DNA from: a virus
UHGV virus genome: UHGV-1440165
Length of the DNA stretch: 64,000 nucleotides
Strand: one strand, 5' to 3'
The notes below the pieces were generated by a model that did not search any database, had not been told where the DNA came from, and saw nothing but the letters and a program-made list of their open reading frames with translations. Shown here one piece after another: positions 4,117-62,099 of this stretch. Positions within the stretch are counted from its first letter, which is position 1. Every line of letters starts with the position of its first letter. Position numbers and translations under genes: made by a program.

Positions 4117-4254
4117 AATAAAAACCCTTTCGTTATTAAGACCGTCTTCGCGGCATATTGCTGTTCTGACTGTGTAGTGAGAACATAATATACTGCATTT
4201 TTCATAGATGTAAACCACTTTTTATTGAAAAGAAGTTAACACCATCGTGTTAAA

Positions 4255-4280
4255 CAGCGCCCAGCCAAGCGGGGCGCGAA
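4255..4280 (-). terminator. GC-rich hairpin (GCGCCC...GGGCGC) downstream of 4323..5075
   Basis: Inverted repeat in intergenic region. Confidence 0.3.
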
Positions 4281-4322
4281 CTTGCGTGAATAATAACTTT
4301 CAACGTCGATATTGAAAACAAA

Positions 4323-5075
4323 TTATTCTTTGGTCAGATAGAAGTTCGGAACTTCAGGACATGCCTCTGGGAGATAGTACCCCACGACACCCTGCTTCAC
4401 TTTCTTCTCAATGTCATCACGGATTTTGCGAACAACTTCTTCCTTCTGCTCGTTGGCCATAACTTCCTCCATGGCACTGTACAGAGAATCAACGATGACG
4501 CTGACATAGTTGTGGATGGCGCGACAAGTGTTCTGGTCATAAACCATATCCGGATCGATCTTGAGATCAACCTGATCGCGTCCGACCAGCAAATGCCCGC
4601 CAGACACGTTAACAGTGTGTTTGAACACATCACTAGATTTCATGACCACGCCATCGGCCTGTGCCAGGTAGAACTCAGTTTTAGAGAAATTCTCCAGAAC
4701 TTCGGCCGGGAAATCGATTTGGATGTCACTACGGTGGCGGCCAAGGTAGTACAGGCAATGTGATAACTTGGAACACGCTTCTTGCGCCATCTTCATGTGC
4801 GCTTTGGCATGTTCATAACCAGCCAGGACGTCGCGGACAAAGTCTGCAACTTCTTGGTTTCCGTATTTGACTTCGTCTTCGAAGTCCATAGCAGTAGGAC
4901 TGTCCGGCTCAATACCCAGCATGTCGAACAGGTTGCGTTCGCGAACAGATTTACCCTGGCGGTCGAAGCCGAGTTTACAACCGACTTCAAACCCGGTTGG
5001 TTCGAAGGTGGTCAGTTTCACATCAAGGCGAGCTGGTGTAAAGTCCAGCCCGAACAGACGATATAGTTGTGACAT
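4323..5075 (-). CDS. hypothetical protein (250 aa)
   Basis: Long ORF in operon context. Confidence 0.55.
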   Translation of the reverse strand: MSQLYRLFGLDFTPARLDVKLTTFEPTGFEVGCKLGFDRQGKSVRERNLFDMLGIEPDSPTAMDFEDEVKYGNQEVADFVRDVLAGYEHAKAHMKMAQEACSKLSHCLYYLGRHRSDIQIDFPAEVLENFSKTEFYLAQADGVVMKSSDVFKHTVNVSGGHLLVGRDQVDLKIDPDMVYDQNTCRAIHNYVSVIVDSLYSAMEEVMANEQKEEVVRKIRDDIEKKVKQGVVGYYLPEACPEVPNFYLTKE

Positions 5076-10621: not shown

Positions 10622-11111
10622 AATCGCGCTCCACAACATATTGGTAGACACGCATCTTAATATAGTCGGCACCGCCTGCTGAAGACAGCACCCTCCATCC
10701 ACTACTGAGGGCATTCATCTTATATTGACCAACACCCTCTTGAAAATAACTTTTAATCTGTTCCAGCTTTCGCCCACGATGATAATAAGAGATGAGTTCG
10801 CCGATGACAATACATTCTGGATAATGTTTGTCCAATGTATTGATGTTGCGGTGGACATACACGGGCAAAACTTCCTCATCATCGATAGGGCTGTACAATG
10901 GGTCGACGATGATTACATTCAGACCATAACGCAGCAGATCTTTGACGCCCAGTCGACAGAACTTATAATCTTCGTGCTTCATCGCCACATATTCGATATT
11001 CTCTTTCTGAGCATAATCCGTCAAGAAAATAAAGAAGTCTGTGTTGGGATCTGGATATTGTATCGACAATTCCTTGCCGATTTCACTAAAACAAAATCCG
11101 CGCATTTTCAT
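10581..11111 (-). CDS. hypothetical protein (176 aa)
   Basis: ORF. Confidence 0.5.
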   Translation of the reverse strand: MKMRGFCFSEIGKELSIQYPDPNTDFFIFLTDYAQKENIEYVAMKHEDYKFCRLGVKDLLRYGLNVIIVDPLYSPIDDEEVLPVYVHRNINTLDKHYPECIVIGELISYYHRGRKLEQIKSYFQEGVGQYKMNALSSGWRVLSSAGGADYIKMRVYQYVVERDYELEKSNAKRKTR

Positions 11112-11118
11112 TCCTCGT

Positions 11119-11126
11119 TATAAATA
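11119..11126 (+). promoter_or_regulatory. T4-type late promoter box TATAAATA
   Basis: Exact TATAAATA ~30 nt upstream of ATG at 11156. Confidence 0.5.
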
Positions 11127-11155
11127 TCTGTACAACTATACTGTGGAGACATATT

Positions 11156-11962
11156 ATGAAATTGCCTTCATTGCCCAGAACGGAAAAGACGTTCAAAAGT
11201 GATTTTTGGCCGAGTGTTATCAAATACCGCGCTTTCACTGCCGGGCAACAAACCCTCATGCTGCAGGTGGCAGATCCAAACACTCCGGTAGCCGAACGCG
11301 CCGAGATCATGGAGAGCCTGTTTGCAGATTGTGTTGAAGCTGGAGCACCGTTCAACAAATTACCCATCGGTGTGGTTGAAGAAGTGTTCATCCGCATGCG
11401 CAGTATCGCTATTGGCGAGCTGATGAAGATTCGTTACAAGTGCAATAACCCTATCGAAGAAACAACCGACCTCGGTGATGGCGAATCCAGAAAAGAAATG
11501 GTTCCGTGTGGGCAAGAACTGACTCTGCCGATCCCCCTCTTGAACGTGAAATGCGTGGCAAAGGAAGGGTTCAAAGAGGTCTTCGACCTGCCTGGTGGTT
11601 ATCACCTGAAGATGCGCCAGCCGTCCTTCGCTGATGCCACCGCGCTGTCCGAATCGGCAAGTGTTGAGCAAATGCTGGCCACCTTTATCGACTGCTTGTA
11701 CGATGACGACGGCCAGGTGTGGAGTGTTGAGAACCCTGATGAACCGGGTATCAAGCCGGAAGATGCTATCGAGCGCCGTCGTGTCAAAGAAGCGTTTATC
11801 GAATGGGTGAAAGATAACCTCGAATCAGATGTCATCGAGGATATCACCAAGAACTTCTTCCATAAGATTCCTCGCATCCACTACAAGAACAAGATCAAGT
11901 GTCCAAAATGTGGTAAAGAACACCCGATCGAGTTCAACAGCATTAATGAAATTTTCATCTAA
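11156..11962 (+). CDS. putative baseplate protein with C-terminal CxxC (late gene)
   Basis: Late promoter; located upstream of gp5-like and gp25-like genes; C-terminal KCPKCGKEH. Confidence 0.35.
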   Translation: MKLPSLPRTEKTFKSDFWPSVIKYRAFTAGQQTLMLQVADPNTPVAERAEIMESLFADCVEAGAPFNKLPIGVVEEVFIRMRSIAIGELMKIRYKCNNPIEETTDLGDGESRKEMVPCGQELTLPIPLLNVKCVAKEGFKEVFDLPGGYHLKMRQPSFADATALSESASVEQMLATFIDCLYDDDGQVWSVENPDEPGIKPEDAIERRRVKEAFIEWVKDNLESDVIEDITKNFFHKIPRIHYKNKIKCPKCGKEHPIEFNSINEIFI

Positions 11963-12105
11963 TGTTTGAAACTGATTTGCTATCCTACTTCGTGATGTGT
12001 GATGAATTGAAGTTACACGGCTATAACATATTCGAAATCAACGAGTCGATGCCATGGCACCTTGACTTGTTAACCGAAGCCCTCCGGGTCAGGTTATCTA
12101 AGAAG

Positions 12106-12128
12106 AACCCCGCATAAGCGGGGTTTTT
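12106..12128 (+). terminator. rho-independent terminator (AACCCCGCATAAGCGGGGTT + TTTT)
   Basis: Stem-loop plus T-run after 11156..11962. Confidence 0.7.
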
Positions 12129-12468
12129 ATTGGCTTAACTGTAAAACAGGTTAATGCCGCTCCTCTTTACCCGAAATTGTTATAATAGGCGTGTTCCTGA
12201 GTTAACAATTGGCGGTCTCTGGTTTTGAATCAGATTGTCAATTAAAAACCATTTTTCAAGGGATGTTCTGAGGTGTACAGTTATTGCCTCGCTCTTATGC
12301 CTCCATGGCATTGGAATGGTGCTGCCTGCATAAGGCGGTCTGATGAGCGAAGCGAATAGGATCGAATAAGACAATAACGGAACGGAAGCAGAGCTTCCTA
12401 TAGTATATAAGGCAAAATCCGTTGCGCATAAATACCTTCAAATCCTTGTTTGACAACTGGAACACAAC

Positions 12469-14079
12469 ATGTTAGACAAAATGAAATGGTTTTATGGCAC
12501 GGTTGAAGACGTCAACGATCCGGACCAAAACGGGCGCGTGGCCGTCCGCATCTATGGCGTACACACAGACGATCCAGTCCTCCTGCCTACCGATAAACTC
12601 CCATGGGCGAAGGTGTTAATGCCTGCATCGAATGCCTCCTCGGCTGGTTTAGGCTGGTCACCGACTGGTATTATCGTTGGCACTGAGGTCATGGGGTTCG
12701 CCCTGGACGATGCGTATCAGAATCTGCGTATCACTTGGACATGGCCGGGGGCTTCTCCTACCGATGGGGCAGACACAAACCCGCTGGCTCTGGGGCAGGT
12801 TGTGCAATCTGTCGAACGTCAGGCGTACAATGCTGTGACGGACGTGCCTGTGAAGGAAGAAGACACACCGCCACCGGACCCCCAGCCTCCTGTTGGTGGA
12901 TATGATCCTGAAAAATGGATGACTATCGCTCGTGGTGAATTGGGTGTCAAAGAGTACGCTGGCAAGTTCAATAACAACCCACGAATCGTTGAGTACCACA
13001 AGACCACCTCCCTCGGCGCATCTGAAGATGAGGTGTCATGGTGTGCGGCGTTCGTCGGTTGGGTTATGCTCAAGGCCGGATTTACGTCTACGCGCTCTGC
13101 TCTTGCCCGATCATACCTGACATGGGGTAGTCCACTGTCAGGACCACAATATGGCGCTATCGTAGTGTTCCGGCGCGGGAACAACCCTACGTTCGGTCAC
13201 GTGGCGTTTGTACAGAAGTTCGATGCCAACTATGTGTGGTGTCTTGGTGGCAACCAGTCTGACTCCGTGAAGGTGAGCCGTTTCAGCCGATCTTCAGTTC
13301 TGGGCTACCGCTGGCCGGGTCCGACTAACACTACCGCAGCAGCCCCAGCACAACAGAACGGGAAGTGGTCTGAACCTATCCCAGACCGTACTCCAAAAGA
13401 GCAGACGACTCCGCCTCCTTCCGGGCGTGTGCAGGATATTGACAACACTGGCGAGACTATGGTTCCGGCAGCGGGTGGTTCCAAATATCCGTACAACAAT
13501 GTCATGGCTTCACGTGCGGGGCACATCATGGAAGTGGACGACACTCCTGGTGGTGAACGTCTCCACTGGATGCACATGTCAGGCTCGTACAAGCAGATGC
13601 TGCCGGACGGGGATGTTGTCAACAAGTCGGTCAAAGACCACTATGACCTGACTATGTTCAACAAACGCTATTATGTTGGCGGCGATCACAACCTGACTAT
13701 CAAAGGGACTGAGGTGCAGCGCAAGAACGGTGAAGTCTATCACCTGCACTCCAGCAATTACTCAAATGTGGTTGCAGGCACGGCGCTATTAAAGTTCAGC
13801 GATCTGGTCGAAATGCAGGCACAGAAGATCTTGCGTATCATCTGTGAGACTCTTGAAGTTGGCGGTGTTCTGAAAGTTCCTAAGCTGCTGGTCACAGAGA
13901 TCATCGCCGATAAACTGACGGTGGCACAGACAATCAACGGCAACATCATATATGCTGAAGGTGCTGGTCGTGCTTCTTCTCTGTCGGGTGCAACCCCGGC
14001 CAGCCCTACGGGTCCGGGTGAGATAGATATCAAGGCAGAGCTAAAAGACAATGGTGGTAATTTCTCCTCAGGGGAATAA
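12469..14079 (+). CDS. baseplate central spike / tail-associated peptidoglycan hydrolase (T4 gp5-like)
   Basis: N-terminus WFYGTVEDVNDP...RVAVRIYGVHT matches gp5 OB domain (WFVGVVEDVMDP...RVKVRVYGLHT); central CHAP/TIGR02594-like peptidase segment (EVSWCAAFVGWV...GHVAFV); C-terminal repeat region. Confidence 0.8.
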   Translation: MLDKMKWFYGTVEDVNDPDQNGRVAVRIYGVHTDDPVLLPTDKLPWAKVLMPASNASSAGLGWSPTGIIVGTEVMGFALDDAYQNLRITWTWPGASPTDGADTNPLALGQVVQSVERQAYNAVTDVPVKEEDTPPPDPQPPVGGYDPEKWMTIARGELGVKEYAGKFNNNPRIVEYHKTTSLGASEDEVSWCAAFVGWVMLKAGFTSTRSALARSYLTWGSPLSGPQYGAIVVFRRGNNPTFGHVAFVQKFDANYVWCLGGNQSDSVKVSRFSRSSVLGYRWPGPTNTTAAAPAQQNGKWSEPIPDRTPKEQTTPPPSGRVQDIDNTGETMVPAAGGSKYPYNNVMASRAGHIMEVDDTPGGERLHWMHMSGSYKQMLPDGDVVNKSVKDHYDLTMFNKRYYVGGDHNLTIKGTEVQRKNGEVYHLHSSNYSNVVAGTALLKFSDLVEMQAQKILRIICETLEVGGVLKVPKLLVTEIIADKLTVAQTINGNIIYAEGAGRASSLSGATPASPTGPGEIDIKAELKDNGGNFSSGE

Positions 14080-25752: not shown

Positions 25753-26322
25753 CTACACAGGCTTGACGCCGAGGAACTTGGCGATATCAGCAGCCAGGTT
25801 TTTACCCTTGCTGATGTCGTGTTCTTTACCGCCGACAGTAACGATTACATATGGATCGTCTTCACCGCCGAAGTTCACAGACACAGCCTTACCATGGCCA
25901 GGGATGCCAGAGTATTCGAACTCAGTACGACCACTCTTGCGAGACTTGCCAACACCCAGTGCTTTACCGATCATCTTGTCCATGTTCGCCAGTTCCTGAG
26001 CATAGGCTTCAGTCACCTGGCCTTTGTCAGCAGACTTGCCAAAGAAGAATTCGAAACCGTCATGGACAGCAACGACTTCCTGACCTTGGGAGATACCGTG
26101 AGTCTGGTCTGGGGTCAGTTTCACCTTGATGGTGTTGCCGTTGGTTAACTCCAGGTTGTAGACATCCGCCTGATTGTCAGGAGTGATCTGGGTCACGGTA
26201 GCACCGGAGCACCACTGAGTGCCATCGGCCTGTTTGGTGATGGATACGCTTTTGCCTTGGACACCAGCATGGGTCTGAGGCTGTGCAGCTTGCTCTTTAA
26301 AATATTCGATAAAAGGTTTCAT
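25753..26322 (-). CDS. putative internal head protein (CTS-like N-terminus MKPFIEYFKEQ)
   Basis: Start with GGAGAGA RBS; N-terminal motif shared with neighbours. Confidence 0.4.
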   Translation of the reverse strand: MKPFIEYFKEQAAQPQTHAGVQGKSVSITKQADGTQWCSGATVTQITPDNQADVYNLELTNGNTIKVKLTPDQTHGISQGQEVVAVHDGFEFFFGKSADKGQVTEAYAQELANMDKMIGKALGVGKSRKSGRTEFEYSGIPGHGKAVSVNFGGEDDPYVIVTVGGKEHDISKGKNLAADIAKFLGVKPV

Positions 26323-26353
26323 TGGATCTCTCCTCGGGGATTTAGATGTAATT

Positions 26354-26369
26354 AGCCCCCGGAGGGGCT
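26354..26369. terminator. hairpin AGCCCCCGGAGGGGCT between convergent genes
   Basis: Inverted repeat. Confidence 0.4.
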
Positions 26370-26394
26370 TTATTCTGTTCAAGACCAGCTAGTT

Positions 26395-28398
26395 TCACCA
26401 AACATTCAGAAATAGTGCATGACCCATACCGCCGTTTGACTGAAGAGACCATTTTCCTGTTTCTCTTCCCAGGCGTTCTATGTTGTTGAGTTGGTTTATC
26501 GACAATTCAGAAGAGTCGAATAATACCACATCACGTTTTTTGGGTTCTCTCAAATAAGGTCCGAGATCAATATCAATCATCCGGTTTATAAATTCTACTA
26601 CTTCGGCTTGTTTCTTTGGTAATGTGATATCCGGCCTGTTTGTCACTTTCTCCAAGCGTCTATTTTCTGCGCTTATCATGGACAGCATAATTTGTGTAAC
26701 TTTGCCGTCAGACAAGTTGTAATCGTTCCAAATCACTTCACCTTTATCCGTGATGGTTATATCATTCAAGAAAACCTGGTTTGGGTTGTATGTCTGACTT
26801 TTCAACTGTTGGAGGTTTCTGGAAAGATATTCCATTTTTGATGAGATTTCATCGATCATGGATTGAACAATATCTTTCTTCAAAGTAAGTTCATAGGTCT
26901 TCGGATTGTTCAGGGTACGCCCTTTCTGGGAGACAATTGGGGTGAATGCAACTTTGCCTTTGTCATGATAATAGGTTACGTTGGTTATCATAGAAGTACC
27001 GGCATATTTTCCGGTTTCAGGGAAATTGATTCCAGACCAAGTGATGGACATGCCGTTCTCTGTTTCCCCGAACACTGATGCGTTTTTCGGGATTCGCAGA
27101 TCTTTAGAACTGATTGCATTTGGATTCGGTTCTGCTGCTTTCGCCTGAGGAGCCAACTGATCGATAGCACCCTGTACCACTCCAGTCAATTTGGATGGTT
27201 TGGTGATGTCGATGTCACGGATTACGATAGGCTGGCCGATGGTTTGCCCACCAGGTCCCAATTCTGTAACTGCCTTGACTGTCAAGACAATCGGATCACT
27301 CCCTTTGATGATGCCACGGTTGATTGTGGCCACCACTGCAGATTTACCGCCGAATGTCAAGCTACCAGAGGCCATTGTCATAGAGGATACGCCGCGAAGA
27401 TCATTCACTTTGTAGAATGCGTTCACCAGAGCACGCCAGCGGTCTGTTGTGAGTTCGGCTGCCGTGGTTTGAGCAGGAGCCACAGCCCCAACGCCAAATT
27501 CAACATAAGCCACAATCTTACCACCAGACTTCAGTTCCCAACCCATGCCCTGGCGGTCAGAAGCCGCCATGATTTTGCGATCCACTTCCCCACGACCAAC
27601 ATACTCTTTGTCGAACACAGTTACCTGGGCGATGGTTTGGGTGCGGGCAATCTTCGCCATTGCGCCATCTTTGACCATGATGGCCAGGTCGTTGGAACTC
27701 AGAGTCACATCGTTGGCACCGACCACCTTCACAACAGAACTGAAGATGCCGTTGGATTTTGCCATGACGGAAATGTTCCAGTCTGGATTGTTGGGCGAAG
27801 CCCCCACATCCGGAGTATTGTTCTGAACCGGAACGTCGCCGACCTTGTCTGGATCATCCCAGGTGATGCCCTGCATCTTCGGACCGTCGAATACCTGAGC
27901 CGGATCTTTGCCCTTGCGGACCAGCCACACATAACCACGGTCAGGGACAGGCGCGTAAGTCAGGTCCATGACGTTCAGTTTCTGTTTCAAACCAGACTGA
28001 CGGATGATCTTTGGAATCAGGGTCATACCGCGATCCAGGGCTTTCTTGGAGAAGTTCACAGCATAGCCATCGATAGTCTTGCCAAGAGGAGTCGCCATGA
28101 ATTGTTTGGTCGCTTCGATCATGGAGGCGATGACGCGCATTGGGTTCTTGAAGCGAGCAATAGCGTCAGGGTAGACGGAGCCGCGCTTCTGGCCTATGAA
28201 GACCTGGCGGACATTCTTGCCCAACCCCTGTGGGGTATAGAACTGGATGCGGTATTCTTTTTCATCTTCGTCGATGAAGGTGAAGAACACATCGCCTGCG
28301 TTCTTCTTGCCCATGGTCAGCTCATACGGAGCGGAGTTGAACGCTTCGTCCAACTGATCTCTTTCCTGCATGAACTGGAGGAAACTTGGCTTTGACAT
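26395..28398 (-). CDS. large hypothetical protein (667 aa) with CTS-like N-terminus; candidate capsid-packaged, injected protein
   Basis: N-terminus MSKPSFLQFMQE...LDEAF; size similar to T4 Alt (no catalytic motifs confirmed). Confidence 0.4.
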   Translation of the reverse strand: MSKPSFLQFMQERDQLDEAFNSAPYELTMGKKNAGDVFFTFIDEDEKEYRIQFYTPQGLGKNVRQVFIGQKRGSVYPDAIARFKNPMRVIASMIEATKQFMATPLGKTIDGYAVNFSKKALDRGMTLIPKIIRQSGLKQKLNVMDLTYAPVPDRGYVWLVRKGKDPAQVFDGPKMQGITWDDPDKVGDVPVQNNTPDVGASPNNPDWNISVMAKSNGIFSSVVKVVGANDVTLSSNDLAIMVKDGAMAKIARTQTIAQVTVFDKEYVGRGEVDRKIMAASDRQGMGWELKSGGKIVAYVEFGVGAVAPAQTTAAELTTDRWRALVNAFYKVNDLRGVSSMTMASGSLTFGGKSAVVATINRGIIKGSDPIVLTVKAVTELGPGGQTIGQPIVIRDIDITKPSKLTGVVQGAIDQLAPQAKAAEPNPNAISSKDLRIPKNASVFGETENGMSITWSGINFPETGKYAGTSMITNVTYYHDKGKVAFTPIVSQKGRTLNNPKTYELTLKKDIVQSMIDEISSKMEYLSRNLQQLKSQTYNPNQVFLNDITITDKGEVIWNDYNLSDGKVTQIMLSMISAENRRLEKVTNRPDITLPKKQAEVVEFINRMIDIDLGPYLREPKKRDVVLFDSSELSINQLNNIERLGRETGKWSLQSNGGMGHALFLNVW

Positions 28399-44084: not shown

Positions 44085-44324
44085 TTAACTGATGTGCTTC
44101 AGAAGAGCGAAGAGGATCGCGGCCTTGGCTTTCACCTTTCCGACGACGCCTGTTTCGACATCGACTTCTTCGGCAACCCAATCTTTTCCCTTCTTGCTGA
44201 TGATAACATCGCGGCGCTGGGCATATACTTCTTTGGTCGCATACACACGGCGGAACCCTTTAGCGCGGAGCAAGCCCCAATTGCGATCAATCTCTACTGA
44301 AGTTTCGACCATTTTGTTCTTCAT
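44085..44324 (-). CDS. hypothetical protein (79 aa), basic
   Basis: ORF with own promoter. Confidence 0.45.
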   Translation of the reverse strand: MKNKMVETSVEIDRNWGLLRAKGFRRVYATKEVYAQRRDVIISKKGKDWVAEEVDVETGVVGKVKAKAAILFALLKHIS

Positions 44325-44375
44325 GATATAATCTTACCTTTCAACCTGGTGAACCCATCGTTCGCCAGTTATTGA

Positions 44376-44404
44376 ATAATAGGACATTCTTTAGAGGAAG
44401 TAAA
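44376..44404 (-). promoter_or_regulatory. sigma70-like early promoter TTTACT-N17-TATTAT
   Basis: Hexamers read directly; follows terminator hairpin. Confidence 0.6.
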
Positions 44405-44421
44405 CCCCTAAAAGTAAAAAT

Positions 44422-44439
44422 CCCCAACAAACGTTGGGG
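44422..44439 (-). terminator. rho-independent terminator (CCCCAACAAACGTTGGGG) followed by U-run on minus strand
   Basis: Perfect 7-bp stem. Confidence 0.6.
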
Positions 44440-44457
44440 ATTTAATAAAAGTTATGC

Positions 44458-44682
44458 CTATTTAATTTCTCGGCTTGAATTTTCCAGTTCTAATTTTCTT
44501 ATAGCGGAAATTCTACCTTCATCAGTTGCGGGAAACTCCCAAACAGCACGACGTCCGTTGTGAGTATCACAACTTGCCAGCCAGAAGAAATTAGAGGGAT
44601 CTTTAAACAAGACCAATTTAGGGTTAGCAATATTGTTCAGGCAAAATGGGGCGAGGTCAACAACGCGTGATACAGCAGACAT
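44458..44682 (-). CDS. hypothetical protein (74 aa)
   Basis: ORF flanked by duplicated terminator-promoter cassettes. Confidence 0.45.
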   Translation of the reverse strand: MSAVSRVVDLAPFCLNNIANPKLVLFKDPSNFFWLASCDTHNGRRAVWEFPATDEGRISAIRKLELENSSREIK

Positions 44683-44731
44683 AATATATACCTTCTTTCA
44701 ACGGACGGGAACGCCCCGCCCTATGAATTCA

Positions 44732-44760
44732 ATAATACGTATTTGCCTTATAGAAGTAAA
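44732..44760 (-). promoter_or_regulatory. sigma70-like early promoter TTTACT-N17-TATTAT
   Basis: Same architecture as 44376..44404. Confidence 0.6.
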
Positions 44761-44777
44761 CCCCTAAAAGTAAAAAT

Positions 44778-44795
44778 CCCCAACGTTTGTTGGGG
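44778..44795 (-). terminator. rho-independent terminator (CCCCAACGTTTGTTGGGG)
   Basis: Same stem as 44422 with reverse-complemented loop. Confidence 0.6.
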
Positions 44796-44802
44796 ACTTC
44801 TG

Positions 44803-53611: not shown

Positions 53612-54832
53612 TTATTCAGGTTTCTTCAAACGATCAAGGAGATTGACAGAGCTGCGACCGAGCACAACTTCATCACAGCGCTTCTTGTAAGCACCACTTC
53701 CGTCATAACCGACCTTACCCCGAGGCTTATCTCCCCGTTGAACGGCTTCTACGCAGCGGGTGTACTTGCTCAGTTCACAGAACATGTTCTCCAGCTGCAT
53801 GACGTTCATACACTGATCTTCCGGGGCTTCAGCCGACCAGAACTGCTCCCGGACATAACCATAGTCCCCGTAAATCGAATCCTGGTGGTCACGCAGCCAG
53901 AAGATACATTCTTCATGCGTCATGCCGTCCTTGTTCAGGAACAACAGGTCGATCCCAGCGCGGCAACCCGGTCCAGCGATAGTGAAATGGTTCTCACTGA
54001 ACGGATACTCAGGAATGTACGTGAAGTCCACCCAGATCTGATAGGCCAGGAATGGACCCAAGCCTTCGATTTCGTCGTACATGGCCTGGTAGACTTCATC
54101 CGGAGATTCGCATTCCAGCAGCCGCTCGAAGTAATCAGGGTGCTTGTTGACGAATGCCCTCAGAGAACGGATGACGCGCATCGGCATGTACGGTTCCCAA
54201 CCCTCAATGGTGTAGAAGTCCGGCTCTGCTTCAGCAATTGCCTTCGCTTCTTTATAATCCATATTCTGGGTTGAACCGTCTTTGCAGATCAGATTCACCA
54301 TCATCCCACCGAAGCGCTGCTCCTTGTGGTTGACAACCAGCTCAGGGAAAGCCAGGCATTGCTTCAGGCCGCCCGTGTTGAAAGCATTGGTGAAGACTTT
54401 GCCGCCGTTGGCCTCGAACTTCTGTAAACGTTCGCGGGTCGCGTCAAGGTTGATCTTGGCGAAGTCGGAGATCGTCATCGCGCCGCCGATAGCCTGGATC
54501 GGATCCCAGAGGTTAAACATGCGGAACAACACGCAGTTGAACATCTTATCCGGCATAGACAGCGCATCGTTGTTAACGATGTTGTTGATTAGGTTGAGAG
54601 ACTGCCTGTCGTGCTCTCTCCGGACGTTGCAGAACTTGACCTGCCGTAGTATGGCATTATCCGTCCAAGGAGCAGGAAGACGCTGGACGTCCTTCTTAAC
54701 GTGGATCTTGTATCGCTCGCTCATCCATTCGTAAGAAAGACGACGATGAAACGGACTGAGCACGGGCTTGGCGGACTTGATTTTATCTTCGCGGACACCA
54801 CAATAAGGGATGTCACGGGCTTTATCTTTCAT
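53612..54832 (-). CDS. hypothetical protein (406 aa), candidate DNA-modification enzyme
   Basis: Start MKDKAR with GAGGA RBS; family not confirmed. Confidence 0.5.
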   Translation of the reverse strand: MKDKARDIPYCGVREDKIKSAKPVLSPFHRRLSYEWMSERYKIHVKKDVQRLPAPWTDNAILRQVKFCNVRREHDRQSLNLINNIVNNDALSMPDKMFNCVLFRMFNLWDPIQAIGGAMTISDFAKINLDATRERLQKFEANGGKVFTNAFNTGGLKQCLAFPELVVNHKEQRFGGMMVNLICKDGSTQNMDYKEAKAIAEAEPDFYTIEGWEPYMPMRVIRSLRAFVNKHPDYFERLLECESPDEVYQAMYDEIEGLGPFLAYQIWVDFTYIPEYPFSENHFTIAGPGCRAGIDLLFLNKDGMTHEECIFWLRDHQDSIYGDYGYVREQFWSAEAPEDQCMNVMQLENMFCELSKYTRCVEAVQRGDKPRGKVGYDGSGAYKKRCDEVVLGRSSVNLLDRLKKPE

Positions 54833-54901
54833 GGTATCCTCACAGAATACGAAAACAGAGGCCATTATAAGCCTCTGCTGTTTAGTGAATAACTGGTTGT
54901 C

Positions 54902-55774
54902 TTAATCGATACGGGTCAGCTGGGTGATCGATGGAGTGATCGGAGTAGCGACGAACACGCGGACGTTAGCTTTCCATTTACCCCAGATCAGTGGCACGTC
55001 TGGCATGTTCTCTTTGTCAAACACAAACACCGGAACATAGCTTTCCATCGCTGTATCAGCATGCGCCTGGAAGCCAGGTTCCATGTACTGCATGATAGAA
55101 CGGACGAAGTCGAATGGGGCGAACCCGACACCAGCTTGTTCGTTGAAGCCGATCTGACCAGAATCGGCAGTGGCGGTCAGGATGATCTCAGTGATCTGAT
55201 GCTTAGGGGTAGCCGTCAGCATATCGGAGAAGTCAGGCTCTTTGAAGGTGGCCATGTTCTTCAGGAACTTCCCAGCCGGGTACTCTTTACCGTCGACGGT
55301 GATGGTGTCAACCACCTTGATGCAAGCCTGAGGGAATTCGCCTTCGATGCGCAGACTTTCACGTGGGAAGCCTTTATCGTAATAGTAGTCCAGCGCTGGC
55401 ACAACTTCATCCATGCTGCGGACGAACTTGCTCATGTTAGAGGCATACACGCGCTGTAAGCATTCATCGCCGTCGAAACCAGCAATGTGCGCCACGCCGT
55501 CGTTGACAGTTGTGATGTCGCCCTGGGCATCCATGATCTGGCGCATGATGTCTTTGGTGTCTACGATGGCAGGGGCGTCGCTCGGCTTAGGATTGACCGT
55601 CAGAGTCAAAGTCACATCGTGGTCAAAGAACGCCGCTTCCAGCAGTTCACGAGTTTCTTCCAGCACCAGTTTGGCCTGGTTGCGGATCTTTGCGAAGTTG
55701 GGCGACGTCACATCGCCCTTTGCATTACCGAAAGCCAGATTCAGTTTCACGTTCTTGTCAAATGTAGTTGTCAT
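54902..55774 (-). CDS. hypothetical protein (290 aa)
   Basis: Start MTTTFDK. Confidence 0.45.
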   Translation of the reverse strand: MTTTFDKNVKLNLAFGNAKGDVTSPNFAKIRNQAKLVLEETRELLEAAFFDHDVTLTLTVNPKPSDAPAIVDTKDIMRQIMDAQGDITTVNDGVAHIAGFDGDECLQRVYASNMSKFVRSMDEVVPALDYYYDKGFPRESLRIEGEFPQACIKVVDTITVDGKEYPAGKFLKNMATFKEPDFSDMLTATPKHQITEIILTATADSGQIGFNEQAGVGFAPFDFVRSIMQYMEPGFQAHADTAMESYVPVFVFDKENMPDVPLIWGKWKANVRVFVATPITPSITQLTRID

Positions 55775-55790
55775 AATATAGCGACTCCAG

Positions 55791-56255
55791 TTATTCGCTT
55801 TTGGCCTTCGTAGGCCGGATGATGTATTTTGGAACCAGCTTCCATTCAGGAACCTGATCATGTTTGACCACTTTGATGCGAGACATATCGGCGGCCTCAG
55901 TGATCTGCTCAGGGTTCAGAACCTTCAACATGTTCCACTGCTCCAGCAGCTTGATGATGCGGTTCATTCGCAGGATGTCCTCACGGTTGAAGCCGTTGTA
56001 GTGGCCATCCAGCATGAACAGATGCTTGAAGTGAACGATATAATACTTGCCATACTTATGAAGAATATGACAAGTCTGGTACAGAGTATTCGGCTCTTGG
56101 CGCGTGTTTACCCCAATTCGGCTCAGTGTTTCCTTGATCCCCAGGAAGATCCCTGGCCGATCTTGGTTCAATTGAACTTCAACCATACAATCAACGATGC
56201 TGGCCTCATCGTTGACGGCTGAAATGTTCAATATGTCTAGCGTATTGCGCGCCAT
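55791..56255 (-). CDS. regA: translational repressor RegA
   Basis: TLYQTCHILHKYGKYYIVHFKHLFMLDG matches T4 RegA VLYQSCHILQKKGLYYIVHFKEMLRMDG; C-terminal EWKLVPKYIIR matches. Confidence 0.8.
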   Translation of the reverse strand: MARNTLDILNISAVNDEASIVDCMVEVQLNQDRPGIFLGIKETLSRIGVNTRQEPNTLYQTCHILHKYGKYYIVHFKHLFMLDGHYNGFNREDILRMNRIIKLLEQWNMLKVLNPEQITEAADMSRIKVVKHDQVPEWKLVPKYIIRPTKAKSE

Positions 56256-56711: not shown

Positions 56712-57701
56712 TCACTTCCACTTGATGTTGAGCATGATGTTGGTCAGGAAGTACACGGCATGCAGCCATACGTCCCCAACCTGACGGTGCTCAATTTGAG
56801 ACTGACCGCAGACACAGACAAGGTCAGGGATAGACTCAGTCTGTACAGACATCGGCTTCTCTTTGTCCTGTGGTACACAGAACTGGAAGAAGCGGGAATA
56901 GAAGTCTTCGGTGATGTAGTTCTGATTGTCAGTCACCCACTGCTTCATGCCAGCCCAGTCATTGGCTTTCAGCATGCCGACCAGAGTGCCGAGGTCAGCC
57001 GCTTTCAACACAGCCAGGGCGCGTTCGTCAATCTTACCGAACGTGGTGACGTTGTCCTGCAGCGTACCCATGATGCGGCGGTTGTCGGGGAAATGGCGCT
57101 TAACGATAGCAGCCAGAACCTGTGGAACGAATTCAACGTTTTCGGCTCTGAGGATTTCAACGCAGCGCAGACAGAATTTACCCTGAACTTCCAGCGCTTC
57201 CTGCTCGTTCCAGATGAAGTCGATCTCACGGCAACGCGAGCGCAGAGGTTCGTTGACACGCTGCTTGGCGTTCGTGGTCAGGATAAAGGAGCAGTTCTTT
57301 GAGACCTTCTCTACGATACCCTTCAGGGATTCCTGCGCCGACATAGACAGGCGCTCAACTTCGTCGAGGATAACGACTTTGCGGCCGCCGAAGACGCTCA
57401 CGCCCGTAGAATACTGAATGACGCGATCACGGATAACATCGATGCTGTTGTCCAGGGATGCGTTGATAAACAGAGGTTGCTTACAACCGATCTCATTACA
57501 CACGGCCAGAGCAGTAGTGGTCTTGCCCGTACCCGGCTGAGGGGAGTAGAACAGCATGGACGGGATGTTGCCGCTGCCGCTGGTAATGTACCCATGGATT
57601 TTAGCGCGGACGTCCTGAGGGATGATGATCTCATCGAGGTTGTCAGGTCTGTACTTGTTCTCCCACGCATATTGGTCGGACACGATAGTGATATTGGACA
57701 T
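56712..57701 (-). CDS. clamp loader large subunit, AAA+ ATPase (T4 gp44-like)
   Basis: Walker A PQPGTGKTT; Walker B VVILDEVE; RFC-like. Confidence 0.8.
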   Translation of the reverse strand: MSNITIVSDQYAWENKYRPDNLDEIIIPQDVRAKIHGYITSGSGNIPSMLFYSPQPGTGKTTTALAVCNEIGCKQPLFINASLDNSIDVIRDRVIQYSTGVSVFGGRKVVILDEVERLSMSAQESLKGIVEKVSKNCSFILTTNAKQRVNEPLRSRCREIDFIWNEQEALEVQGKFCLRCVEILRAENVEFVPQVLAAIVKRHFPDNRRIMGTLQDNVTTFGKIDERALAVLKAADLGTLVGMLKANDWAGMKQWVTDNQNYITEDFYSRFFQFCVPQDKEKPMSVQTESIPDLVCVCGQSQIEHRQVGDVWLHAVYFLTNIMLNIKWK

Positions 57702-58357
57702 TATGAATTCCCATGATATAGTTTACAGAATAGAACCCAAGCACTGTCATTATATGGGTTCCAACCTTCTTTGAATTTGTTTATCATACTCATTGCAGTG
57801 TTCTCTTTTATTGAGAACAAACGAGCAATTTTACGACAACCATCTCCGGTTTTCAACCAATGTAAGTAAACATCGCCCGATTTCAACCACATTGGTCTAG
57901 TGTTATGCAACAACGCAGCCCCTGTGTCCCAAGGGTTTATACCGAACACCGGATGAGAAGAACCTTTCCTACCGTTCATCGGATGTTCTTTCCCTTTCTT
58001 TCCTTTTAGCCAACCAGGCTTTCCCCTTCTGTGATGGTTTGGTCCTGCTGCTCTTCCGTTAGCCACAGAACACCCTTCCGGTTGAAACATCAAGTTTAAA
58101 CAGAGAGGATTTTGTGAATGTTCTGAAATGAGTTTCTGTTCTTTCCAATATGCATCTTCTGGAGAGTCGAACAATTCTACAAATATCACATCAAAGAAAT
58201 CAGAACCTTTCTTAGATATGATTTCCTTGACCGTTTGTGAAGAAGTGAAATACGAAGTGAACAATTGTAAAGGATGCGCACCCAATTTCGTTCTAGAACC
58301 AAAATAGAAAGAACCATCCTTTCCTAACAAATGATATACAAACGGTTGGTTCCTCAT
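57701..58357 (-). mobile_element. free-standing GIY-YIG homing endonuclease gene (Seg-like)
   Basis: N-terminal VYHLLGKDGSFYFGS (GIY-X10-YIG spacing); inserted between clamp-loader and clamp genes. Confidence 0.5.
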
Positions 58358-58436
58358 TTCAGCCTCTTGTAGAAGAATCATTTCAAATGGGCGGGAAAGC
58401 CCCGCCCACACATTATAGCATCAGGCTGGAGATTGA

Positions 58437-59105
58437 TTACTCAATCTGCGCGCCGACGAAGTAATTGATCGTCGCGTCGGAGGACTGGAAGTTAACCATC
58501 TGCAGTTCAGCACAGGCACGGAGCGTGTAGTTGCCTTCGATCATCTTCAGGTTGGCAACGTCCAGAGGCATAACAAAGTCGCTCATGGCGGTTTCGCCCA
58601 GCTCTACGGTGTAGTTGTTGGAGTTGTCCAGGCCAGTAGTAGTCGCCACCATGCGGGTTTTGCCACCCTGAGCAACCAGGCGAACTGTTTTGTGGCCGAG
58701 GGTAGAACACGCACGAGTCAGTTCTTTCATCTTCTCTGGAGTGATGATCGCTTCAAAGTCGACGGAAGGCAGTTCGATGGTGTCAGCCGGGACCACAGTC
58801 AGTTCTTTGGCGGAACGCCAGAACTGCAGTTGAGAGCTTTCGCCTTTCAGCAGGATGTAGTCCTGATGGAATTCGGCTTTCGCGCCTTTAAAGGAAGGCA
58901 GACGCTGAATGGCCAGCAGCTTGGTCAGGTCCAGAATAGGGAATTCAAACGGGAAGTCTTCTTCGATCTGCGCAACGGCGATCACAGTAGAAGAATCGTT
59001 GATGCTGCGCAGCATTTTACCCGGTGTCAGAACGATAGAAGGGTTGATGGTCTCAAAGTTGGCCAGCAACTGAAGTGTACGTTCGGAGAGAGTGATCTCT
59101 TGCAT
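58437..59105 (-). CDS. sliding clamp (T4 gp45-like)
   Basis: N-terminal LLANFETINPSIVL resembles gp45 LLKNFATINSGIML; 222 aa; gene order 45-44-62-regA. Confidence 0.65.
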   Translation of the reverse strand: MQEITLSERTLQLLANFETINPSIVLTPGKMLRSINDSSTVIAVAQIEEDFPFEFPILDLTKLLAIQRLPSFKGAKAEFHQDYILLKGESSQLQFWRSAKELTVVPADTIELPSVDFEAIITPEKMKELTRACSTLGHKTVRLVAQGGKTRMVATTTGLDNSNNYTVELGETAMSDFVMPLDVANLKMIEGNYTLRACAELQMVNFQSSDATINYFVGAQIE

Positions 59106-59211
59106 TTATGTATCCTCAAAATATAGTGGGGGTTCAAGTCATGTTCGACGCAATCTAGTATCGCTGTGTTGTGCTTATAGAACAAGTGGCAAATTGCGCT
59201 ACGCGTTATAA

Positions 59212-59230
59212 TAAATGCCTTCGGCATTTA
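59212..59230. terminator. hairpin AAATGCC-TTCG-GGCATTT (UUCG tetraloop) in AT-rich intergenic region
   Basis: Inverted repeat read directly. Confidence 0.4.
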
Positions 59231-59383
59231 TGGACTTTATTAAAGATAATAACCTTTATTATTCCTATTCGCTTCGCTCATAAAACAAATACTCGTTGCT
59301 CGTTAACACTCACAACTCGTATAATACCACGCCAGATGTTCAACAAGAAAGCAGTTTTTATTCAACAGCAAAATTAATTTAAT

Positions 59384-59412
59384 TTGGTCTAAACATGTAC
59401 GCGAAATAATAT
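59384..59412 (+). promoter_or_regulatory. sigma70-like promoter TTGGTC-N17-TAATAT for 59448 gene
   Basis: Hexamers and spacing. Confidence 0.4.
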
Positions 59413-59447
59413 GTATGTCAGGTTAACCCAACACACGAGAGTAATAT

Positions 59448-59825
59448 ATGAAACAGTTCGTAGGATTGTACGCAGTGGGATGCAGCAAGCCAGATGCTAT
59501 CCTCACCGCAGGGGAATTTGTTACAGGAACACCAGTGTATCTGTCACAGCTGGCGTCTGATAAGAACTTACCATCGGAACCGCGCTTTGTGCCACTTGGC
59601 CTGATGACAGGCATGAAAGTTGGCTTGTACATTGGTGTCGTTACCTTCAACGATGGTATCGAAGCGAAGGTGCTGCCATTCCAACTCAACAGTGAGCAAA
59701 CACTGAAAGAAACGATTGCTGAGCATCTGAATCCTCAGTGCCTGGCTTCCCTCGATAAATTGTTCGGCGCGGCGGGAGATGAAGGCGAGGCCACCCCCGC
59801 CTATGTGAATCAAGATCAATCGTGA
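59448..59825 (+). CDS. hypothetical protein (125 aa)
   Basis: Plus-strand ORF with own promoter; 3' end overlaps convergent UvsW gene. Confidence 0.45.
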   Translation: MKQFVGLYAVGCSKPDAILTAGEFVTGTPVYLSQLASDKNLPSEPRFVPLGLMTGMKVGLYIGVVTFNDGIEAKVLPFQLNSEQTLKETIAEHLNPQCLASLDKLFGAAGDEGEATPAYVNQDQS

Positions 59826-61324
59826 TTCCCGAGCGCCACCTTCATGAATTCCACGGGGTGACGCTCTGTTAGATAGAATTTGTATCGCTCTTGAGAATGC
59901 CTCACAGCGTGGTTCTGGGATCCTTTGTACGATGCATTGTCGACTAAGTCCCAGATCCATGCAACATCCTTAGAGGAGTGCTGGCGCATCAGACGGCCTA
60001 ATGTCTGTATGACACGGATGTATGACTTGCTCGGGTGAGCCAGTACCAGGTGATGTAGCTTTTTGATAGACACGCCCTGCTGCATTGTGCCATACGATGC
60101 CAACAGCGTGATATCCTCGCCATCTTCCATCGCTTTCTGAATACGCCGACGATCCTCGATCTTCACTTCACCGTTGATGACGAACACGTTGGGTTTCACC
60201 GCGCTCAACATCTCGTACACCACCATCATGTGGGCATCAATACGCTCAAACATGACAGCCACGTTCCCATTGAGGTTCAGTGCCATCTTCGCAATCACTT
60301 CGTTTCGTGACTGATGGGTGATGAGGTATTCAATTTCCTTGCTGTATTCCCCGTCCAGTGTCATTGCGTCGGCGATGGTATGCCTCAGCTCAATCATCTT
60401 GACTTTGATGTCAGTGGCGTAGCCCAGATTAATGAGGTCGCGAGCCGTGATGATCTTGTGATAGGTGCCGAAGTGAGCGACAACCTGCAGCCCAGCAACC
60501 TTCGTGTTCGCAAGCGTACCTGTCACGCCCAGACGCTGGTCGGCATAGATGCAGTTGTTGAGGATGTAGGACAGCTTCTCCGACTTGGAGGTGTGAACTT
60601 CGTCCACCACGATATCACCGAACTGATGGAACCATTCCTTCGGCTGATCTTGTATGCCCTGCCAGGTGCTGATTACAATCGGCTTGGTGATGTTTTTAGT
60701 CGCGCCCTCAAAGATCAGCTGAGTGTTGACAACAGGCTTCCAATCAGTCCCGTGGGAGTATTCTTCGAAGTTGTCATACAGCTGCGTAACCAGGTGGATT
60801 GACGGCACCACGATAAGCGTCCTCAGATTGCTTTCCAGAGCTTCTCTGCGTTGCCTGTAGTACCGCGCCATGACATACAGAACAAAGGACTTCCCGGCAC
60901 TCGTAGCCAGCTCACAGACGCATCTGGTCTGACGCATCGCCTTGGCTATCGTGTCAAACTGGTAATCACGGGTGATCGCATCGATGTACTCATGATTCTC
61001 TGTCCGGACTTTGGCATGCAGGCTGTTGATGAATTCGTGTATCTCTTCATCAGGAATGTTCTGAACGTATTTCAGCGCCGGGTCCAGCTCAATAGTGTAG
61101 CCGTTCTGTTTGCAGAACTTGAACACCTCGAACAACAGGCCGATGTCGATAAGGCCGGAAGATTTGGTGAACAGACGGACAATCCCATCCCATTTAGAGA
61201 ACGGGTTCGGAGTGTAGTTTGGGTCTTCGAATTTGAAGTAATCGTTCAGCTCTTCCCTGATAGAAAGATCTGCGATGCATCGCATGCGGACTTCGTTAAC
61301 CTTAACAATCTGAACGTCTGCCAT
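59816..61324 (-). CDS. uvsW: SF2 DNA helicase UvsW-like
   Basis: DExH box VVDEVH, helicase motifs, ~503 aa, adjacent to uvsY as in T4; start at MADVQ (coordinate +/-1). Confidence 0.65.
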   Translation of the reverse strand: MADVQIVKVNEVRMRCIADLSIREELNDYFKFEDPNYTPNPFSKWDGIVRLFTKSSGLIDIGLLFEVFKFCKQNGYTIELDPALKYVQNIPDEEIHEFINSLHAKVRTENHEYIDAITRDYQFDTIAKAMRQTRCVCELATSAGKSFVLYVMARYYRQRREALESNLRTLIVVPSIHLVTQLYDNFEEYSHGTDWKPVVNTQLIFEGATKNITKPIVISTWQGIQDQPKEWFHQFGDIVVDEVHTSKSEKLSYILNNCIYADQRLGVTGTLANTKVAGLQVVAHFGTYHKIITARDLINLGYATDIKVKMIELRHTIADAMTLDGEYSKEIEYLITHQSRNEVIAKMALNLNGNVAVMFERIDAHMMVVYEMLSAVKPNVFVINGEVKIEDRRRIQKAMEDGEDITLLASYGTMQQGVSIKKLHHLVLAHPSKSYIRVIQTLGRLMRQHSSKDVAWIWDLVDNASYKGSQNHAVRHSQERYKFYLTERHPVEFMKVALGNHD

Positions 61325-61352
61325 ACAAAATCTCCCAAGATATATGGGATAT

Positions 61353-62099
61353 TTAGTGGTTCGGCCATACTCCGTTCTGTTCTTTGTCCATACGATGGTA
61401 CAGGCGGACACGCTCAAACATCTTGCTCAGGATGTCATCACGGTGGAACTCGATGATGGTTGGGTTCAAAGAGGATTCGTTGGCGATGACGTTTATCAAC
61501 CGGGTGATCTTTACGCCAAACATCTGCTGGAACATGACCGAGTACAGGCAAAGCTGAATGCTGTAGTCCTCGATCATTCCGCGAGTCTTGATGGTATTGG
61601 AAGTCTTGAAGTCAATGATGGCTGGTTTACCCTCATACACCCCGATGAGGTCTACGCGCCCAGCGAGGCCAAGGACTTCGCTATATAATGGGATCTCCTG
61701 AGCATAGATCTTGCTCATCTTGTTCAGGTAAGGGAAGAGTTGCTTGAACATGAACATGTATTCGCCAGCCGCCTCAAGCACTTCTTTCATCGGGCGATTC
61801 TTCAAATACAGTTCACAGGCGAGGTGCAACTTCTCACCACGGTCGGCACACCGCATGGTCTCTAAATCGGCGGCCTCGTGTCCTAGCTTGTCCCTCCAGG
61901 CTTCTAGCCATTCATGGTCCCCAGTACGCCCAAGCATCGTCGTGACCGAAGTCAGTTTGACGCCAGTTGGTGAGACGTAGTGGCGACCATTCTCCGTCGT
62001 GACACATTCCAGTTCTTTGTATGGGAGTTCATACTGCTGGAATGTGTGGTGACGATTTTCGAAGTCGTTCAGCTTACGAAGAGCCTGGAGGGATGCCAT
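61353..62099 (-). CDS. RecB-family PD-(D/E)xK nuclease
   Basis: VDLIG...IIDFKTS...QLCLY motifs. Confidence 0.45.
   Translation of the reverse strand: MASLQALRKLNDFENRHHTFQQYELPYKELECVTTENGRHYVSPTGVKLTSVTTMLGRTGDHEWLEAWRDKLGHEAADLETMRCADRGEKLHLACELYLKNRPMKEVLEAAGEYMFMFKQLFPYLNKMSKIYAQEIPLYSEVLGLAGRVDLIGVYEGKPAIIDFKTSNTIKTRGMIEDYSIQLCLYSVMFQQMFGVKITRLINVIANESSLNPTIIEFHRDDILSKMFERVRLYHRMDKEQNGVWPNH

Follow-up and report, generated by a model that had tools for sequence, protein, structure and literature searches.

A putative Seg-like GIY-YIG homing-endonuclease gene at the gp45-gp44 junction of Ackermannviridae phages and a linked sequence patch in gp44

The subject of this report is a free-standing open reading frame (ORF) that lies between the genes for the sliding clamp and the clamp loader in UHGV virus genome UHGV-1440165, of which a stretch of 64,000 nucleotides (hereafter the window) was analysed. 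Comparison of the locus identified the source of the window as an Ackermannviridae phage: its 2.5-kb locus is 98.8% identical to that of Yersinia phage CAU_YEP3, and a 157-kb contig filed under a Salmonella Newport assembly (AAHWVY010000012) differs from it at 9 of 2394 positions. The ORF encodes a protein of 218 residues with the N-terminus MRNQPFVYHLLGKDGSFYFGS and is oriented like both of its neighbours, a gp45 homologue upstream and a gp44 homologue downstream (Table 1). On the coding strand the gene order runs uvsW, a small opposite-strand ORF, gp45, the ORF in question, gp44, gp62, regA, a MazG-like gene and a gene for a protein with a 5-hydroxymethyldeoxyuridine (5-hmdU) DNA kinase domain. 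An earlier reading made from the letters by themselves (the sequence-only reading) had placed a free-standing GIY-YIG homing endonuclease here, between two genes that are adjacent in T4; its coordinates proved exact, the neighbours were confirmed by PHROG 223 and Pfam, and T4 genes 45 and 44 are indeed neighbours, separated by a spacer of 50 bp. The guanine-plus-cytosine (GC) content of the ORF is 0.40; the whole window stands at 0.51 and the adjoining genes at 0.52-0.56, so that the ORF forms a compositional island.

Table 1. Features of the gp45-gp44 locus in the window. Residue numbers refer to the ORF product, and gp44 and ORF nucleotides are counted from the respective start codons.
Feature	Position in window	Strand	Remarks
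Putative homing-endonuclease ORF, free-standing	57701..58357	-	218 amino acids plus stop; ATG 58355-58357, TAA 57701-57703; PHROG 314 'homing endonuclease', E = 1e-16
gp45 sliding-clamp homologue, upstream host gene	58437..59105	-	PHROG 223, E = 1e-64; Pfam gp45-slide_C weak
gp44 clamp-loader ATPase homologue, downstream host gene, presumed target gene	56712..57701	-	Pfam AAA, Gp44_lid, DNA_pol3_delta2
Insert relative to naive genomes, 656 bp	57702..58357	-	gp45 stop to gp44 ATG 741 nt here, 85 nt in JA15
Captured translation-initiation region	58355..58368	-	AAGAGG (58363-58368), 5-nt spacer, ATG; ribosome-binding site and start of gp44 in naive genomes
GC-rich hairpin 3' of gp45	58387..58409	-	native, outside the insert; also in empty sites
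GIY-YIG catalytic domain (assigned), residues ~5-92	58082..58345	-	key residues Y8, Y18, G20, R22, Y36, S39/S40, E73, N88
Basic Gly/Lys/His-rich linker, residues ~93-145	57923..58081	-	partly disordered; pLDDT <50 at 100-114
C-terminal helical, helix-turn-helix-type, presumed DNA-binding domain, residues ~146-218	57704..57922	-	
Mosaic central segment, ORF nt 214-522	57836..58144	-	~62-64% identity to the allele of the other 13 phages (15 records)
ORF 3' end, now supplying sequence 5' of gp44	57702..57751	-	last 45 nt (50 with AATGA) kept as scar in LIMEstone1, RC-2014 and Coodle
Substitution patch linked to the ORF, gp44 nt 36-54	57648..57666	-	codons 12-18, A-W-E-N-K-Y-R
Wider co-converted tract, gp44 nt 6-54	57648..57696	-	window versus pSal-SNUABM-02, 99-100% identical backbone

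The further proposal that the ORF is a mobile insertion was borne out by comparison with relatives, which are polymorphic at this junction. Among 288 phage records matching the locus, 16 are occupied, representing 14 distinct phages once GenBank/RefSeq duplicates are set aside: rabagast, allotria, S115, KE31, Mansal, SilasIsHot and UTK0004 in Kuttervirus, pSal-SNUABM-02, SP-9-14 and SW16-7 in Agtrevirus, the unclassified Aglimvirinae PC3, PH4 and YX22, and CAU_YEP3. Elsewhere the gp45-gp44 spacer measures 83-91 bp. The naive junction consists of the gp45 TAA, a hairpin, the sequence TTTGAAA…AAGAGGCTG(A/C/T)A and the gp44 ATG, a layout common to Limestonevirus (JA15), Agtrevirus (SKML-39), Kuttervirus (CBA120, Maynard) and Taipeivirus (0507-KN2-1). 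The insert, whose boundaries are ambiguous by 3 bp owing to an ATG at both ends, sits exactly at the gp44 start codon, and the TAA of the ORF shares one base with the gp44 ATG (TAATG). Sequence 5' of the first ATG is lineage-specific right up to that codon, being of the Kuttervirus type in rabagast and of the Aglimvirinae type in the window, which argues that the mobile unit begins at or just after the ATG. Moreover, since the ribosome-binding site and ATG that serve gp44 in naive genomes now start the ORF, the element has captured the translation-initiation region of gp44, and the gp44 start of carriers lies behind the 3' end of the ORF. There is also an in-frame ATG eight codons 5' of the ORF start (58379-58381, minus strand) and a GTG farther up (58409-58411, minus strand), from which gene callers lengthen the ORF to 226 or 236 amino acids (P0001; PC3 annotation); the ATG, which lies just 3' of the hairpin and has no Shine-Dalgarno sequence, shares the reading frame of gp44 in naive genomes.

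The ORF is intact at 218 codons in all eight carriers examined, with pairwise ratios of nonsynonymous to synonymous divergence (dN/dS) of 0.07-0.27, and is under purifying selection. Between Kuttervirus and Agtrevirus carriers the ORF retains 91-97% identity, whereas gp45, spacer and gp44 retain 72-85% (spacer 66%).

The sequence-only reading had based its assignment on a GIY-YIG motif with correct spacing, quoted from residues 7-21. The motif is present, its GIY and YIG elements being F6-V7-Y8 and Y18-F19-G20, but on its own it does not rise above chance, as a loose GIY-(9-11)-YIG pattern turns up a single time when the window is translated in all six frames, against an average of 0.45 times per shuffled window. 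It is because of profile and fold evidence, not the motif, that we retain the assignment. A word-indexed homologue search yielded only two clusters, and the exhaustive HMMER search that was then used yielded 649 relatives. In an alignment of 53 of these, 40 match SegE_GIY-YIG (E<0.01), 24 match NUMOD3 and five match PF01541; Y36, S40, E73 and N88 are invariant, and Y8, Y18, G20, R22 and S39 nearly so, with Y8, Y18 and G20 each found in 52 of the 53. Scored with the family profile, T4 SegE reaches 47.6 bits and T4 SegD 38.5 bits. Alignment to I-TevI by hhalign (E = 6e-5; the I-TevI sequence used was confirmed by its match to PDB entries 1MK0, 1LN0 and 1I3J) pairs Y8 with Y6, Y18/G20 with Y17/G19, Y36 with H31 and E73 with E75, so that the catalytic tyrosine and glutamate residues line up. 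It sets N88 against N83 of I-TevI, not N90, and the equivalence of the asparagine rests on family invariance.

AlphaFold applied to the single sequence gave an unusable model (predicted local distance difference test score, pLDDT, 39.6), and an alignment-based model with a mean pLDDT of 84.5 was used instead. This model has a confident N-terminal beta-beta-alpha-alpha-beta-alpha fold, resembling that of I-TevI, followed by a poorly ordered linker and a confident helical C-terminal domain. The last of these matches helix-turn-helix DNA binders (CENP-B, Tc3/mariner), and its final ~43 residues bear a weak resemblance to the C-terminal end of T4 SegG. NUMOD3 found no match in the ORF at E-values up to 10, and the linker holds no zinc finger; the protein has four cysteines (C86, C96, C174, C210), none of them in a CxxC pair. 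Scanning the ORF with NCBIfam and PADLOC returned nothing above threshold, and a scan of IMG/VR for further loci returned no relatives. Profiles and modelled fold together support the sequence-only reading in placing the ORF in the Seg-like branch of the GIY-YIG nucleases. The explanation that we regard as likely is that some Ackermannviridae phages have had their gp45-gp44 junction invaded by the gene of a free-standing, Seg-like GIY-YIG homing endonuclease, and that the ORF is this gene.

The allele carried by the window is found only there, in CAU_YEP3 and in contig AAHWVY010000012. Its ends are close to the common allele (91-95% identity over ORF nt 1-215 and 85-98% over nt 521-657), while in the central segment (nt 216-520, 62-64% identity) synonymous divergence (dS) is saturated and nonsynonymous divergence (dN) is 0.29, as against a dS of 0.09-0.66 in the two ends. 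The divergent centre runs from the last part of the nuclease domain through the linker into the first helices of the C-terminal domain. With its conserved ends and diverged centre, the window allele is a mosaic of two old lineages.

Sequence linked to the ORF extends into the coding region of gp44. Over codons 12-18 naive genomes read GC(A/G)TGGGAAAACAAATATCG(T/C), that is, GC(A/G) TGG GAA AAC AAA TAT CG(T/C) for A-W-E-N-K-Y-R, with AAG TAC at the K-Y codons in the naive SKML-39. Carriers of the main allele, in both subfamilies, read GCCTGGGAGAACCGTTTCCGC (GCC TGG GAG AAC CGT TTC CGC, giving N-R-F-R). The window allele comes with its own version of the patch, GCGTGGGAGAACAAGTACAGA (GCG TGG GAG AAC AAG TAC AGA), in which the changes are exclusively synonymous. 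The main allele is thus linked to the substitutions K16R and Y17F in the clamp-loader KYRP motif, and the window allele to a silent recoding of the same codons. T4 gp44 has the K-Y-R-P motif as well (EQKYRP), and the motif is equivalent to replication factor C (RFC) box II in clamp loaders. When a 51-nt patch query was used, all 15 main-allele carrier records matched at 96% identity or more and naive genomes at no more than 84%; the gene-free Efm 3-10 matched at 96% or more, and A221, RPN242 and the scar phages described below at 88-90%. As to the first of these, both 'Enterococcus phage Efm 3-10' (L017, OR844942.1, UNVERIFIED_ORG) and 'Pseudomonas phage Pa-sanjiao' (MN871475.1) match Kuttervirus at the locus, Efm 3-10 being almost identical to CBA120 there; the host labels of the two look wrong, or the samples were contaminated.

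The extent of the linked sequence is sharply drawn by pairs of phages with near-identical backbones. The window and pSal-SNUABM-02 differ at 148 of 657 ORF positions and at 16 positions within gp44 nt 6-54, and at only four in gp44 nt 55-990; upstream, the spacers are the same and gp45 differs at nine positions. Because these two genomes share nearly the same backbone and carry different alleles and patches, a recent replacement of one allele by another at an already occupied site is indicated. Comparison of carriers with naive phages gives the same picture: rabagast differs from CBA120 at 13 positions in gp44 nt 18-51 and next at nt 201, allotria from CBA120 at seven positions in nt 36-51 and next at nt 201, and SP-9-14 from SKML-39 at 12 positions in nt 15-50 and next at nt 192. 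LIMEstone1, a scar phage, differs from the naive JA15 at 17 positions in nt 6-66 and next at nt 162. In these five independent pairs, then, the gp44 differences fall almost only within nt 6-66, with right-hand limits at nt 50-66. The sequence-only reading had marked the junction as a likely site of marker exclusion between related phages, and co-conversion of roughly the first 54 nt of gp44, observed here in natural recombinants, supports it in so far as this is the sequence signature that localized marker exclusion would be expected to leave.

Three phages record what appears to be the loss of the element. LIMEstone1, RC-2014 and Coodle are without the ORF, yet their junction is not naive: the spacer reads …TTTGAAATGA joined to CAGTGCTTGGGTTCTATTCTGTAAACTATATCATGGGAATTCATA-ATG, in which a 5-bp microhomology, AATGA, joins the last 45-50 nt of the ORF to the upstream region and the native AAGAGG is gone. 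A query made from this junction matched in full in five records (three phages) and over its 3' part in the 16 carrier records, and it matched none of the naive genomes. As the scar sequence occurs in carriers and scar records and in no naive genome, the segment derives from the element, and the scar phages descend from a carrier that suffered a 631-bp deletion. The notion that the 3' ~50 bp of the ORF are native intergenic DNA was ruled out, naive genomes being entirely without that sequence. The 'putative middle promoter' annotated for gp44 in LIMEstone1 (L002, 4019-4050) falls wholly inside the scar. In T4, promoters of essential downstream genes sit inside seg genes and favour their retention (PMC2988022), and the promoter-annotated remnant of LIMEstone1, by analogy, recalls this arrangement.

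From the patterns set out above we infer nuclease activity, a cut site in the 5' part of gp44 and marker exclusion, and a sequence of events may be proposed. In a mixed infection, the enzyme would bind and cut naive gp44 around nt ~36-66, over the W-E-N-K-Y-R-P codons and tens of base pairs from the insertion point; that the conversion tracts end at gp44 nt 50-66 suggests a cut site this close. Conserved coding sequence is a general habit of homing endonucleases in their choice of target. Repair of the break from a co-infecting carrier genome would then copy the cassette together with the intervening 5' end of gp44, which would amount to localized marker exclusion. The gp44 nt 36-54 patch would accordingly be both target and immunity site, shielding carriers from their own enzyme. 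Genomes with the patch only (Efm 3-10, A221 and RPN242) could be products of short-tract repair or secondary losses by recombination, and loss of the cassette by microhomology deletion could have left the LIMEstone1 scar, constrained to keep the sequence now needed before gp44. A further, more tentative proposal is that two deeply diverged alleles compete for the one site, each with its own centre and linker and its own 'immunity' recoding of KYRP, that one replaces the other, and that gp44 expression has been made dependent on the element; the central and linker regions of the two alleles may tune spacing or specificity. This last proposal we consider possible at best. If it is true, the locus documents, in nature, how nuclease and target have co-evolved and how super-invasion proceeds within an essential, highly conserved motif.

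Several observations weigh against the homing-endonuclease reading and the target proposed with it. For the ORF itself Pfam PF01541 scores 16.1 bits (cut-off 22.6) and PF19835, SegE_GIY-YIG, 15.4 bits (cut-off 25); sequence searches of the PDB with the ORF and with the family profile gave no GIY-YIG protein, and Foldseek reached an E-value of only 0.02. The essential Arg27 of I-TevI, which is in helix 1, aligns with Leu32, a position occupied by Leu or Phe in 50 of the 53 relatives; judging from the alignment, the conserved R22 (Arg or Lys in 52 of 53), directly after the YIG element, may substitute for it. The patch also occurs in three gene-free genomes, Efm 3-10, A221 and RPN242, and it could be a hitch-hiking polymorphism of the lineage first invaded and not an immunity determinant. 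Finally, the cut site envisaged here is at most 66 bp away, whereas the characterized T4 Seg enzymes cut hundreds of base pairs from their own genes, and T4 Seg and Mob cleavage sites typically lie hundreds to thousands of base pairs from the gene (PMC2988022). The sub-threshold Pfam scores, the leucine at the Arg27-aligned position and a linker in which neither NUMOD3 nor a zinc finger is detectable would all suit a decayed or domesticated relative that binds DNA without cutting it, as a passenger or a regulator. We hold this to be improbable, since every family-invariant catalytic-type residue is kept (Y8, Y18, G20, R22, Y36, E73, N88), dN/dS in the catalytic domain is 0.05-0.09, and replacement of an allele on a 99-100% identical backbone, together with spread between genera, implies recent activity.

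A different objection concerns why the gene is kept. It may be maintained mainly as an interference weapon whose nuclease harms related phages in the same cell, or because it is 'addictive' in the sense that translation of gp44, an essential gene, has come to depend on the ORF, with homing secondary; the Shine-Dalgarno sequence and ATG taken over from gp44, the TAATG in which the two genes overlap, the purifying selection on the ORF and the T4 precedents, in which host-gene promoters embedded in seg genes favour retention (PMC2988022), are all in keeping with this, as is the fact that the sole deletion derivative seen keeps the 3' 45-50 nt beside gp44. Such a role is compatible with homing, however; the co-conversion tracts and the spread across genera require a mechanism of mobility, and 272 of the 288 matching records manage without the gene, so that as the main explanation we think it rather unlikely, though still to be taken seriously. 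Hardly tenable, by comparison, is the idea that the Ackermannviridae had the ORF from the outset and lost it repeatedly, with no insertion involved. The deletion remnant of LIMEstone1-type phages and the genomes with the patch but without the gene speak for it, but it is already contradicted on several counts: the naive junction puts the same ribosome-binding site directly on gp44, and its divergence follows that of the flanks in Limestonevirus, Agtrevirus, Kuttervirus and Taipeivirus; no trace of the 3' sequence of the gene is left in naive genomes; and neither the low GC content of the ORF nor its closer identity between subfamilies than that of its flanks accords with it. Invasion by a homing endonuclease gene thus remains the reading that we prefer.

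Other features of the window may be recorded briefly. An RNA structure masking the ribosome-binding site 5' of the ORF was considered and dropped, its z-score being -1.26 and its pairing partner not being conserved in Kuttervirus. Promoter-like matches in and around the ORF (4, against 3.5 in shuffles) and terminator-like ones (3 against 1.7) showed no excess. Upstream of the locus, an AT-rich divergent intergenic region (59100-59450, GC 0.32-0.37) with terminator-like hairpins on both strands separates gp45 from the small plus-strand ORF (59448-59825), which belongs to PHROG 4255, of unknown function, and is mislabelled 'clamp loader subunit' in some records. The uvsW gene (59816-61417, minus strand) is a single intact ORF of 533 amino acids in the window; in LIMEstone1 (L002, 5487-7871) it is interrupted by the 299-amino-acid I-LimI ORF, annotated as a putative intron, and it is interrupted likewise in the otherwise near-identical Newport contig (L021, 1-1599), so that two mobile-element polymorphisms lie 1.5 kb apart. 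No paralogues of the ORF or other Seg, I-TevI or I-LimI-like genes were found in the window. Further islands of low GC content (0.37-0.41) lie at 4001-4501, 10701-12501, 26301-27101 and 44301-44801; the ORFs checked in the last three islands are a baseplate hub, PHROGs of unknown function, an acyl carrier protein, an ADP-ribosylase-like fragment and a large protein whose C-terminus is internal-head-protein-like, and none of them resembles an endonuclease. Downstream, the protein encoded at 53612-54865 (minus strand) has a 5-hmdU DNA kinase helical domain (Pfam E = 1e-82) and adjoins a MazG-like pyrophosphatase (54902-55861, minus strand); its counterpart in CAU_YEP3 is annotated as an alpha-glutamyl/putrescinyl thymine pyrophosphorylase. 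As the window holds genes of a thymidine-hypermodification pathway, an endonuclease of this phage would have to act on modified DNA.

The locus is of interest on several grounds. Public genomes show it in five states, namely naive, occupied by either of two alleles, gene-free with the patch, and reduced to a deletion scar, and the sharp bounds of the conversion tracts in five backbone pairs allow a precise prediction of the target, gp44 nt ~36-54 in the clamp-loader KYRP motif. Cocktails for biocontrol or therapy directed at Dickeya, Salmonella or E. coli O157 that mix carrier and naive Ackermannviridae may swap replication-gene alleles in a biased fashion. An enzyme that would have to act on thymidine-hypermodified DNA could also attract interest as a reagent.

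T4-like phages are a well-known home of free-standing homing endonucleases, and the Ackermannviridae are known to be rich in them. The ORF is an uncharacterised member of a well-known kind, and its existence is unsurprising. Adriaenssens et al. reported 14 homing-endonuclease genes in LIMEstone1, GIY-YIG types included, and listed F-LimVI as an I-TevI-like GIY-YIG homing endonuclease; the gp45-gp44 copy, of which LIMEstone1 has the scar only, is undiscussed in that paper (PMC3296691). Presence, absence and decay of homing-endonuclease genes among Dickeya phages were described by Carstens et al. (PMC6267328). Several GenBank/RefSeq records label the ORF 'homing endonuclease' and others treat it as hypothetical, as does SW16-7 ('hypothetical protein'), whose accompanying paper does not discuss it or count it among its clamp-related proteins. 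Our literature search found no paper describing the gp45-gp44 locus, its scar or the linked gp44 patch.

Among known systems, T4 SegE and SegD share with the ORF the catalytic-domain subfamily (PF19835), an alignable 'Y-x-[GT]-S-[GS]' motif after the YIG element, and the placement of a free-standing gene between conserved replication or repair genes. They differ from it in that the ORF scores only 13.5 and 7.2 bits against them pairwise, in the C-terminal domain, in the insertion site and in the host, Straboviridae as opposed to Ackermannviridae. T4 SegG, whose gene separates genes 32 and 59, is responsible for the marker exclusion seen with gene 32 of T2, and its homing co-converts the neighbouring gene (PMC2988022). 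The ORF resembles SegG over the C-terminal ~43 residues (14.8 bits; tblastn E = 3e-4) and in its position immediately 5' of a gene essential for replication, which has its expression signals within the endonuclease gene or behind it. In contrast, the N-terminal domain of SegG scores only 2.8 bits against the family profile, and SegG cuts far from its own gene, where here a site within ~66 bp is inferred and the start codon of the host gene is used. I-TevI (PDB 1MK0, 1LN0, 1I3J) is the best structural match of the modelled catalytic domain and has a comparable modular layout of nuclease, linker and helix-turn-helix domain, with a target near the insertion site, as is proposed here; the ORF, unlike I-TevI, is not intron-encoded, has no zinc finger in the linker, carries Leu at the Arg27 position and is only 16-18% identical to it. 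Members of the same family, with 36-37% full-length identity to the ORF, are F-LimVI and its homologues at the rnh-gp55 junction of Limestonevirus and Kuttervirus, annotated F-LimVI in XF4 and 'GIY-YIG homing endonuclease' in Maynard, and ChubbyThor gp176 between uvsY and an exonuclease gene, which differ from the ORF in being paralogues at other junctions.

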